Part shown: piece by piece, positions 60,171-62,850 of the stretch
Position numbering within the stretch: position 1 is the first letter of the stretch
Layout of the letters: each line of letters opens with the position of its first letter
Assembly (NCBI GenBank): GCA_900552495.1
Contig: URZY01000001.1
Coordinates: 55,502-119,501 of the forward strand
From: an uncultured Mycoplasmatota bacterium
GTDB taxonomy: Bacteria > Bacillota_I > Bacilli_A > RF39 > UBA660
DNA: 64,000 bases
Reading direction: 5' to 3'
Position numbers and translations under genes: made by a program
The notes under the pieces: model-generated
What the model saw: only the letters and a program-made list of their open reading frames with translations
What the model was told of the DNA's origin: nothing
The model's database searches: none

Positions 60171-61466
60171 ATGAAAATAGGATTTACTACAGATACTAAT
60201 TTTTTTGGTTTAAAAAATCAAGATAGTTATAAAAAAACAACTTTTTTAGATGAAATGGATTATTTTATTGATTATATTTTTTCATTAAATGAAACCAAAC
60301 CAAAATATGAATTAGAATATTGTGTTCCTGATTTAGTGTTTGAAGAATTGTATAATCAAAAGAAGGCTTCTTTTAAAAATAGTTACGATGCATTTGAAAA
60401 AAAGTATAACTTATTAAGTTATGGTTTGTTGGGTGATTTACCTAAGTTTAATCTTGATGAAGTATTATTAAAAGAAATGAATGAATATAAAGAAAAAGTC
60501 ATTACTTTAACTAGTGATTATAATCAAGATTTATTTTTAGAAATAATAAAAGATTCTTTAGAGAAAAATCCACCATTTGATAAAAATTTACCTAATACTG
60601 GTTTTAAAGATTCTTTAATTTGGAAAACAATAGTATATAGTGAATATATTAATAAGTATGACGAATTTTATTTGTTTTCTGGAGATAAAATTTTTAAAGA
60701 TAATGAAGAGTTTTTAACGGCTGAATTTAGTAAACATCACCCAAATGTAAACTTATTTATTGTTTTTTTAGAGCCAAATGGTAATCAACGACAAAATGCC
60801 TTTAATGCTATTATTGAAAAATACAAATTATATAAGACAGATGTTGTTAAATTGTATAATAGTAATGTAATATTAAAGTATATAAAGAGTTTAATATTAC
60901 CTGCTAATGTTGATTCATCTTATTATATGGGAAATGGTATCGAAGTTAATCTAGAAGATGTTTTATTTAAAGATTTTGATGAGACTGATTTTTATATAGA
61001 TAAAGTGATAAAAGAAGGAAATGGGTACAATGTTGATATAGTCTTTAGAACTAAAAAATATATTACAGATATAATTATAGAAGAAAATGAAAAAAAATAT
61101 TTACTAGGTAATGTAAGATTACAATTGAATGAAACAAAAAACAGTTATACTTGTAAAAGTAGTGAAATTTATGGAGTGGATTTCGATTTAGGTGTTGTTG
61201 ATTTGCTTAGAGGATTTACTATAAAAGGTGTAGGGAACTTGGCATCTGAAATATCAAAGATTGTGAATGAAAATTATAGAATTAATATGGAGTGTTTACA
61301 ACCTTTAAAAGAATTACAAGAAACAATAAAAAAGATTACAGAGCCAATTCAAAATACACAAAAAATGTATGAGGCTTTAAATCTTTTAAAAGACATAAAA
61401 ATTGCAAGTCCTATTGATAGTATGAAACCAATAGGCAATGCTTTTAATAATGAAAATAAAATATAA
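60171..61466 (+). CDS. PIN-domain fusion protein (N-terminal PIN-like nuclease domain of ~190 aa plus ~240-aa unknown C-terminal domain).
   Basis: PIN-type acidic residues in the expected secondary-structure context: IGFTTDTNFF (beta1-Asp), VPDLVFEEL, GFKDSLIWKTIVY (D-x-LI motif as in VapC), FSGDKIF. No similarity to core genes. Confidence 0.55.
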   Translation: MKIGFTTDTNFFGLKNQDSYKKTTFLDEMDYFIDYIFSLNETKPKYELEYCVPDLVFEELYNQKKASFKNSYDAFEKKYNLLSYGLLGDLPKFNLDEVLLKEMNEYKEKVITLTSDYNQDLFLEIIKDSLEKNPPFDKNLPNTGFKDSLIWKTIVYSEYINKYDEFYLFSGDKIFKDNEEFLTAEFSKHHPNVNLFIVFLEPNGNQRQNAFNAIIEKYKLYKTDVVKLYNSNVILKYIKSLILPANVDSSYYMGNGIEVNLEDVLFKDFDETDFYIDKVIKEGNGYNVDIVFRTKKYITDIIIEENEKKYLLGNVRLQLNETKNSYTCKSSEIYGVDFDLGVVDLLRGFTIKGVGNLASEISKIVNENYRINMECLQPLKELQETIKKITEPIQNTQKMYEALNLLKDIKIASPIDSMKPIGNAFNNENKI

Positions 61467-61626
61467 CAAAAAGGGTCAAGGACATACTTGTCCAATTCAT
61501 ACAAGAATAATTAACCACCATGTTTATAAACATACTTATAGACCAGTATTTACTTGTAGTGAAGAAAATACTGTAAGTAATATTCAATGTGGTTCTTGTT
61601 GTCAATTTAGATAAGTAAGATTTAGA

Positions 61627-61650
61627 GGGTGATTTTTCATCCTTTTTATT
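61627..61650 (+). terminator. Rho-independent terminator after the PIN-fusion gene.
   Basis: GGGTGA-tttt-TCATCC stem (one G-U pair) followed by TTTTTATTTT. Confidence 0.5.
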
Positions 61651-61719
61651 TTGTTAAATTTTTAATAATATTAGAGTTTGCATTTAAAAAATGTTATACT
61701 ATGTAGTAGGTGAAGTGTA

Positions 61720-62850
61720 ATGGATGTTTTAACTATATTTTATGATAATATCCTAAAAGAGGCTGCTCAAGGCCGGATTAATAGTTTTTTCTATTATAAT
61801 ATTGTTTTTAATACAATTTTAGATGATGATGGAATTAGATATGATGCAAGTGTTGATTTAAAAGACTTAATGATTCCAACTTTACATATAAAGAACAAAG
61901 CAGAATTTGATGAACTATTAGTTAATTATGTAGATAAATGTTTGGACTTTTATGATAATAGTAATTTTTCAGAAGAAGTTGTTTCTGGAGAGATGTATGA
62001 CGAAGTAGATAGAATATCAAAAGAGAAGACAATATTAGCTTTTTTATTTGCTAATGCTACAATTGAGGATTTTTCAGATCCTAGTAGGTTTCTACGAAGA
62101 AGAATTGATTTCTTTGATGCTACTAAACCCTGCAAATATGATTTGGGACAATCTAGTATACTAGATTGCAATCTTCAGGTTGAAGTTTGCAAGGATAAGT
62201 TAAATAATGAAACTCCTTATCAATTTGTAGTTCGTTGTATTTCGGATACTGGTGAAGAATATGAATTACCAAGATTAAAATTTGGTGTTTCTGATAATAA
62301 AGCGTATGTTTATGCTATTCAGAATTATAATAAGCAAGAAAGTACTTTTTCAAAAAAAATAAATAGAAAGTTGTATAAAGTTGGAGAAGGTTTTTCAAAG
62401 GAGAAAGATAATTTTGATATTTATGAAGAAGGAAATTTAAATGATATATCACCAAGTTTTTTATTAGTAGCTAATCTTTTTACTTCATATATGGATAAGA
62501 TGGAAATAGATGATTTTGTTATCTCTCCTATTTTGTTAGAAAGATGGAATTCGAAGGTTATGTCTAATGAATTTAAAAGTAAGAGAGGTAAGAAACCTTA
62601 TGCGGAATCATATGAAGAGCAATTACGAATACAGTCAAATTTAACCGAAAAATTTTTAAGAACTTTTTTAAGATTAAATCATCATTGTGATAATTTATCG
62701 GTTACTGCTTATCCAGCGGAGCAGGGATTTGATTTATGTCTTACTAATGATGGTATTATTCGTGGAAATAATAGTTTATTGAATGAGACAGCTAATATGA
62801 TGAGTGAGGCTCAAAAGATTGGTAGTGCTGAAAATGGGTTACATAAATAA
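61720..62850 (+). CDS. Hypothetical protein, 376 aa (island cargo).
   Basis: Long ORF with its own extended -10 (TGTTATACT) and a purine-rich RBS. No motif recognised. Confidence 0.55.
   Translation: MDVLTIFYDNILKEAAQGRINSFFYYNIVFNTILDDDGIRYDASVDLKDLMIPTLHIKNKAEFDELLVNYVDKCLDFYDNSNFSEEVVSGEMYDEVDRISKEKTILAFLFANATIEDFSDPSRFLRRRIDFFDATKPCKYDLGQSSILDCNLQVEVCKDKLNNETPYQFVVRCISDTGEEYELPRLKFGVSDNKAYVYAIQNYNKQESTFSKKINRKLYKVGEGFSKEKDNFDIYEEGNLNDISPSFLLVANLFTSYMDKMEIDDFVISPILLERWNSKVMSNEFKSKRGKKPYAESYEEQLRIQSNLTEKFLRTFLRLNHHCDNLSVTAYPAEQGFDLCLTNDGIIRGNNSLLNETANMMSEAQKIGSAENGLHK

Follow-up and report, generated by a model that had tools for sequence, protein, structure and literature searches.

A serine-recombinase element with a predicted PIN_12 nuclease gene at its right end interrupts a CotD-like gene in an uncultured Mycoplasmatota bacterium

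Sporulation gene-intervening elements are known from several genes and include skin (sigK), SPbeta (spsM), vfbin (spoVFB), vrin (spoVR) and gin (gerE) (PMC5595907, PMC4191935, PMC5025042). PIN_12 proteins, formerly DUF4935, belong to the VapC-like group and have a PIN domain followed by an alpha/beta C-terminal region, usually encoded by a monocistronic gene (Matelska et al. 2017, PMC5499597). No function has been established by experiment for the family, so that membership gives no mechanism. The window, which is the whole analysed stretch of 64,000 nucleotides from an uncultured Mycoplasmatota bacterium, contains an inserted 6.46-kb mobile element at positions 55021-61481 (+ strand), and the last gene of this element encodes a PIN protein of 431 amino acids (aa). 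The PIN gene belongs to a known uncharacterised family and the element is of the known general serine-recombinase kind. The observations are best explained together by an element that encodes a large serine recombinase, splits a CotD-like gene and carries a stand-alone PIN_12 cargo nuclease, with the following gene, for a 376-aa protein, lying outside; we regard this joint explanation as probable.

The boundaries of the element are given by an empty site in the same species, locus L059. This locus aligns with the window in two blocks, L059 38-2314 with window 52744-55020 and L059 2312-4830 with window 61482-64000, both at 99.5% nucleotide identity, and it encodes an Ffh protein 100% identical and a 376-aa protein 99% identical to those of the window. 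Because L059 joins position 55020 straight to 61482, the 6.46 kb between these positions is an insertion. The GC content is 24-27% within the element and about 29-30% over the rest of the window. The two L059 blocks overlap by 3 bases, and this overlap and the junction sequences give the crossover core ACA, at 55018-55020 in the left attachment site (attL) and at 61482-61484 in the right one (attR), 15 nt past the PIN stop codon (61466). The core is common to the attachment (att) sites: attB is GAGGTTCC-ACA-TACTTGTCC, attL is GAGGTTCC-ACA-AGTGAGTCC and attR is GGTCAAGG-ACA-TACTTGTCC, while the sequences spanning the junctions are GAGGTTCCACATACTTGTCC for attB and GGGTCAAGGACAAGTGAGTCC for attP. 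The reconstructed attP, AAAAGG-N7-ACA-N7-CCTTTT, is a symmetric inverted repeat, the kind of sequence expected where a recombinase binds. The attP junction had no match in IMG/VR, and no Rfam families or tRNA genes were found in or near the element. The element is polymorphic, as occupied sites, empty sites and sites with alternative cargo are all present among the related loci. Samples with the element include SRR25213281, ERR11568964 and SRR27027684.

The insertion point is codon 70 of a gene that encodes 112 aa and that is intact in L059, where the open reading frame (ORF) spans the junction (L059 2106-2444). In the window, codons 1-69 lie at 54812-55020 (+); this 5' fragment is identical to L059 through ...FVHEVP and then diverges, with six foreign codons and a stop at 55039. 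Codons 70-112 lie at 61482-61614 (+), beyond the element, and are 100% identical to those of L059. This split gene accounts for two features that the sequence-only reading had placed between the PIN gene and the 376-aa gene. The terminator that was said to separate them exists as an intrinsic-terminator-like hairpin at 61624-61645 (+), but it is the terminator of the CotD-like gene and not of the PIN gene, because it is placed after the stop codon (61614) of the CotD-like 3' fragment. The Cys/His-rich ORF of 55 aa at 61438/61450-61614, said to overlap the 3' end of the PIN gene, also exists, but it is not a separate gene: it consists of the last 43 codons of the split gene, read from a fortuitous ATG within the 3' end of the PIN gene and the end of the element.

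The split gene belongs to a Cys/His-rich family with the pattern PH-x-CP-x-[HN]T-x-IIN-x-H-x-[YF]-x-HTY-x-P...CGSCC. The family has at least 908 homologues, and no informative name is found among the best 120 of the 908. Six of eight orthologues match the Pfam model Spore-coat_CotD (PF11122), with a best E-value of 3e-4, and the one member with a listed score has no NCBIfam match; the name CotD-like is therefore used here as a lead and not as an assignment. The window encodes a SpoIVA protein at 26836-28365 (- strand), which scores 701.5 bits against an equivalog cut-off of 459.9, and the host is thus a spore-former. A SpoVB-like protein is encoded at 4122-5789 (+), and the window has genes for EzrA, RNase J1 and RNase Y as well; taken with SpoIVA, they indicate a host from the low-GC, spore-forming Bacillota. 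The related contigs carry labels of uncultured Bacilli or Clostridia metagenome-assembled genomes.

The recombinase is encoded at 57647-59233 (+) and has 528 aa, with matches to the Pfam models Resolvase, Recombinase and Zn_ribbon_recom. It is distantly similar to the NCBIfam models CcrB, CcrC and XisF, and its scores for the Ccr models are far under their cut-offs. An ORF of 56 aa (57480-57650, +) overlaps the start codon of the recombinase by 4 nt. It has no family match and is kept upstream of the recombinase in three related elements, at 89% identity in L021, 52% in L062 and 50% in L139. We propose that it may act as a recombination directionality factor, in the manner of GirX and SprB (PMC5595907). 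In the proposed mechanism, the serine recombinase, probably with the 56-aa protein as directionality factor, would both insert the element and remove it at the ACA core, and its removal would make the reading frame of the CotD-like gene whole again.

The element resembles the described intervening elements in its large serine recombinase, in its insertion within a small gene's coding sequence, in the SpoIVA-encoding host, in the ORF that precise removal would restore, in the small ORF by the recombinase, which resembles GirX or SprB, and in the use of one codon in further contigs, at least two of them from other species. Like gin, it has no phage structural genes. Unlike skin, SPbeta, vfbin, vrin and gin, its target is a CotD-like gene, which is not among the genes listed in PMC5595907, PMC4191935 and PMC5025042. 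Also unlike the known elements, it has a small size of 6.5 kb and a cargo that resembles defence genes, and an excision linked to sporulation is in its case a proposal. As the host is a spore-former and the interrupted gene looks like one for a coat protein, an excision that is timed by development and takes place in the mother cell, as in skin, SPbeta, vfbin, vrin and gin, is possible; we put this forward tentatively and consider it somewhat doubtful. If excision were tied to sporulation, the CotD-like gene would be a new target among the few developmentally rearranged sporulation genes, and a developmental rearrangement would be connected with the carriage of defence genes.

The PIN gene is found at 60171-61466 (+) and its product has three parts. 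Residues 1-204 (60171-60782, +) form the PIN domain, assigned to PIN_12 by Pfam, the alignment and an AlphaFold2 model; residues from about 205 to 350 (60783-61220, +) form an alpha+beta domain that appears NTF2/cystatin-like in the model; and residues 351-431 (61221-61466, +) form a low-confidence helical or disordered tail, with a predicted local distance difference test score (pLDDT) below 50 and with motifs that are visible in the alignment. The protein has 57 homologues, which are under clear constraint. The sequence-only reading had recognised PIN-type acidic residues in the N-terminal part, and this proposal holds well: D8 (TDTN), E59 (EEL), D147 (KDSLIW) and D172 (SGDK) are invariant in 33 aligned homologues of 32-77% identity, and the consensus around them is GFxTDTN, EEL, GFKDxLIW and S/T-x-D. 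In the model, which was built from the alignment, D8 follows strand 1, E59 is in the helix after strand 2, D147 is at the N-terminus of a helix and D172 follows strand 4, within a Rossmann-like alpha/beta/alpha PIN fold. The pLDDT is mostly 80-95 over residues 1-350, with dips at about residues 11-30 and 81-90, and is poor beyond residue 350. Residues 1-204, when isolated, match PIN_12 (PF16289) with 42.5 bits and an E-value of 1.2e-10, against a gathering threshold of 32; the homologues P0010, P0032 and P0039 score 42-49 bits, and the precomputed annotation of an identical protein lists PF16289. By these sequence matches, the protein is a typical member of PIN_12/DUF4935 with an intact predicted D-E-D-D metal-binding quartet. 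The full-length protein has no match in NCBIfam, PHROG or PADLOC, and a profile search of the family against PDB sequences returned nothing meaningful.

The locus shares with PIN_12 of the VapC-like group (PF16289, PMC5499597) an N-terminal PIN domain about 200 aa long with conserved acidic residues, the long helical insert after strand 2, the two helices after strand 3, the C-terminal region with its alpha/beta structure and the stand-alone gene. The protein of the window is longer than the typical member, with 431 aa instead of about 350, because of its disordered tail of 80 aa. The remaining 240 aa, which had been described as free of any recognisable motif, are in the model an NTF2/cystatin-like alpha+beta domain, at about residues 205-340, followed by this tail. 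The tail has repeats of the form (P/L)LK(D/E), seen as QPLKELQE and NLLKDIK, which the closer homologues keep and which are more numerous in P0005; it may serve as a peptide for docking or autoinhibition. VapBC type II toxin-antitoxin systems differ from the locus, which has no VapB-like antitoxin upstream (a gene for a 285-aa Bro-N protein is there instead) and no partner conserved in 14 loci. The PIN protein is also three times larger than VapC toxins and has two extra C-terminal modules. The PIN gene has a promoter-like element of its own, an extended -10 (TGaTATAAT) at 60141-60149, and an AGGTGA ribosome-binding site.

The ORFs of 431 and 376 aa are both present as the sequence-only reading had listed them, with the 376-aa gene at 61720-62850 (+), beyond attR, but its proposal of a possible two-gene effector pair does not survive. 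Such a pair would be a toxin or defence system, for instance an effector with a sensor or an immunity protein. In its favour, the two genes stand side by side with the same orientation, both in the window and in every contig of the strain, and neither protein matched anything in the first full-length scan. Against it, the element boundary, with the attR core at 61482-61484, separates the two genes, and what is left of the 3' end of the split gene stands between them, along with its terminator. L059 has the 376-aa gene without a PIN gene, and L021 has another gene in the place of the PIN gene. Co-occurrence was counted in 34 genome loci of the PIN family and 80 metagenome loci of the 376-aa family, all searched with both hidden Markov model profiles; a locus was counted for the 376-aa family if it had at least 1.5 kb upstream (n=63) and for the full-length PIN family if it had at least 1.5 kb downstream (n=12). 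The two profiles occur together in no contigs but four, all from the strain of the window: a relative of the PIN protein is found in none of the 63 loci of the 376-aa family, and a relative of the 376-aa protein in none of the 12 PIN loci, nor in L139 and L140, which brings the latter count to 0 of 14. Moreover, the 376-aa family is a widespread chromosomal gene family found in housekeeping contexts. The pair is therefore refuted on the ground that the sequence-only reading had itself named, because the two genes never co-occur elsewhere, and as an explanation we consider it exceedingly improbable. The adjacency of the PIN gene and the 376-aa gene is created by the insertion of the mobile element; it is a matter of chance, and the two genes should be dropped as a candidate two-gene system.

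The same attachment site is occupied in other contigs by elements with different cargo. Relatives of the recombinase, with 71-91% identity, are found at this site in L021, L062 and L139, with the same attR layout. In L021, which encodes a 376-aa protein 99% identical to that of the window, the recombinase is 91% identical and the slot of the PIN gene, exactly from the Bro-N stop codon to attR, is filled by an unrelated gene of 300 aa (L021 4848-5750), while the left cargo slot holds a Type II restriction enzyme (REase_II). A comparison by hhalign (probability 0.2) showed the 300-aa protein to be no relative of the PIN protein. Near its C-terminus is an RSTLVH motif, which is similar to the Rx4H motif and suggested a HEPN domain, but the protein has no Pfam match and is not claimed here as a HEPN protein; its sole PADLOC match is weak (PDC-M57B, E 0.009). 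In L062 and L139, which are from two other species, recombinases of 71-76% identity, listed at 72% for L062 and 76% for L139, precede a 3' fragment of a CotD-like gene, which begins at codon 70. The L139 element (386-6872) encodes a methyltransferase (MTase), a T5orf172 protein, DpnII, a helix-turn-helix protein, a small ORF, the recombinase and, directly after it, PIN428, a PIN protein only 40% identical to that of the window. Codon 70 is thus targeted in four contigs, the window included, from at least three species and with differing cargo. L140 (1-7362) encodes a recombinase of 37% identity with a PIN homologue directly after it and genes for a Type I specificity subunit and a helicase upstream. 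Defence-type cargo includes REase_II in L021, the MTase and DpnII in L139, and the PADLOC candidates PDC-S13 and PDC-S05.

The element is also similar to SCCmec-type and other serine-recombinase islands, with which it shares a recombinase distantly related to CcrB and CcrC, a fixed chromosomal attachment site and accessory genes that vary between strains, as between L021 and the window. Unlike SCCmec-type islands, the element of the window disrupts its target ORF. The locus thus describes a small element with exact attachment sites, one CotD-like target codon and swappable defence-like cargo.

Directly upstream of the PIN gene is the gene of a Bro-N/DinD-like protein (59281-60138, +; Pfam Bro-N), which has 285 aa when read from ATG 59281 and matches the PADLOC candidate PDC-S13 with an E-value of 3.9e-114. 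This ATG is most likely the start, as it stands 10 nt after the ribosome-binding site AAGGGAGG; TTG 59272, the mechanical start of the ORF, is less likely. A promoter-like sequence, TTGAAA-17-TGaTATAAT, is found at 59211-59239, ahead of the gene. The PIN gene starts just 32 nt past the stop codon of Bro-N, and the real functional unit could be the Bro-N/DinD-like protein, as a DNA-binding sensor, regulator or antitoxin, together with the PIN protein as effector. A Bro-N homologue of 53% identity is also directly upstream of the PIN homologue in L025, a RhuM gene is upstream of it in L005, and the presence in L021 of the same Bro-N gene with another gene in the slot could mean a constant sensor with exchangeable effectors. 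However, Bro-N or RhuM is beside the PIN gene in only 3 of the 14 loci, and in L139 and L140 the PIN gene comes directly after the recombinase. The PIN gene also has its own extended -10, PDC-S13 is a single-gene candidate in PADLOC, and DUF4935 genes are usually monocistronic (PMC5499597). No neighbour family is common to the 12 independent PIN loci, and no partner is common to all 14. A Bro-N/PIN unit is for these reasons quite unlikely, and the PIN protein, a predicted nuclease, is probably carried as stand-alone cargo.

A large serine recombinase adjoins the PIN gene or lies within 2.7 kb of it in 7 of the 14 PIN-family loci. This repeated link, and the frequent position of the PIN gene at the end of an element, are also consistent with a PIN protein that serves the element itself, for example as a self-contained addiction module, with the tail masking the PIN site in cis, or as a nuclease that processes nucleic acids of the element or of its competitors. 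The lack of a separate antitoxin and the disordered tail with its repeated conserved (P/L)LK(D/E) motifs would agree with such a service. The sister elements in L021 and L062, which have nearly the same recombinase and no PIN gene, show that the PIN gene is not needed for the function of the element, and half of the PIN-family loci have no recombinase nearby; we consider this explanation unlikely, although it keeps more than negligible weight.

In the preferred explanation, that of a stand-alone cargo nuclease, the PIN protein would be a Mg2+/Mn2+-dependent endonuclease, most likely an RNase like those of the VapC group. The gene's own extended -10 would drive its expression, and the protein would work without a separate partner protein. 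As there is no separate antitoxin, the C-terminal domains would have to control it, and the NTF2-like domain or the tail would regulate or target the nuclease. Its likeliest role would be that of cargo which aids the element or the host, by anti-phage abortive infection or by stabilisation of the element; this is suggested because in the sister elements the same and neighbouring slots are filled by restriction-modification genes and further defence candidates.

Several observations weigh against this account. The nuclease activity, the toxicity and the phage-defence function of the PIN protein are predictions from sequence and gene context. The first full-length hmmscan with Pfam gave no PIN_12 match for the 431-aa protein. 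The PIN protein, its separate domains and its homologues have no match in PADLOC-DB v2, and the family is absent from IMG/VR, GenBank phages and PLSDB plasmids. At half of the PIN-family loci there is no recombinase or obvious defence neighbour, so the defence role is argued by association. For the interrupted gene, one CotD-like member scores 15.4 bits against a Pfam cut-off of 22. The empty site L059 is from a different assembly, so that excision is read from a comparison of assemblies.

A broader proposal joins these parts: an undescribed skin/gin-like family of elements, inserted at one codon of a CotD-like spore-coat gene in a number of uncultured spore-formers of the gut, which would excise in the sporulating mother cell and thereby rebuild the gene, whose two cargo slots would carry exchangeable anti-phage genes and whose right-end PIN_12/DUF4935 protein would be a single-gene abortive-infection nuclease. 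We think this combination improbable; if true, it would give a first function for the orphan PIN_12/DUF4935 family. The locus also gives a clean in-context example of PIN_12/DUF4935, with a structural model and a recurring link to serine recombinases that suggests where to seek its function.

The left cargo of the element consists of two overlapping genes (55103-57033, +). The first encodes a Zn-ribbon protein of 213 aa (55103-55744, +), which has weak Zn-ribbon Pfam matches and a C-terminus that matches phrog_29396; the second encodes a protein of 430 aa (55741-57033, +) with no informative family match. Neither protein has a PADLOC match. Between this cargo and the 56-aa ORF is a non-coding stretch of 447 bp (57033-57480), with a terminator-like hairpin at 57378-57392. 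It has no Rfam match and falls within a backbone block of 3.1 kb that aligns at 85% with the sister element of L021, and it might hold the regulatory region of the recombinase. The promoter statements made here refer to single sites read by eye, because a sigma-70 promoter scan found no excess over shuffled sequence (67 sites, with 70.7 expected).

The 376-aa gene, outside the element, has an extended -10 of its own, as the sequence-only reading had noticed: TGnTATACT at 61692-61700, upstream of the gene, by direct reading. Its product has 91 homologues, again under clear constraint, and an exhaustive profile search gave 937 clusters at 50% identity. The protein has no Pfam, NCBIfam, PHROG, PADLOC or PDB-sequence profile match, no fused domains were found in Pfam scans of the longer members of its family, and a Foldseek search of its model against PDB returned nothing at E <= 0.001. 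The model is very confident (pLDDT 92, predicted template modelling score 0.90), and from it the protein can only be called a member of an uncharacterised family with a GNAT-like core. The canonical acetyl-CoA motif A (Q/R-x-x-G-x-G/A) was not seen by eye in the alignment of the family, in which the loop between the strand at 194-201 and the helix at 209-222 varies in length. The protein stands for a large family that lacks annotation but has a confidently predicted fold.

Genes for homologues of the 376-aa protein are found among housekeeping genes and without a PIN gene, distant homologues of the PIN protein have no neighbour of the 376-aa family, and in element-free relatives the gene is syntenic with ASCH-rpoZ-recX. 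L024, from a related species and with a 376-aa protein of 73% identity, keeps ffh ... 376 ... ASCH-rpoZ-recX in this order and lacks both a recombinase and a PIN gene. It is the CotD-like gene that is the true conserved neighbour of the 376-aa gene: about 10 related lineages have a 376-family gene just downstream of an intact CotD-like gene (loci L016, L059, L060, L065, L067, L068, L072, L075 and L078-L082), and this adjacency hints at a spore-related role for the family. Just upstream of ffh, at 50166-52733, the window encodes an 855-aa HerA/DUF87-like ATPase, which scores 158 bits with the NCBIfam anti-phage HerA model, far below its cut-off; a DUF87/HerA gene is also near ffh in the distant relative L016.

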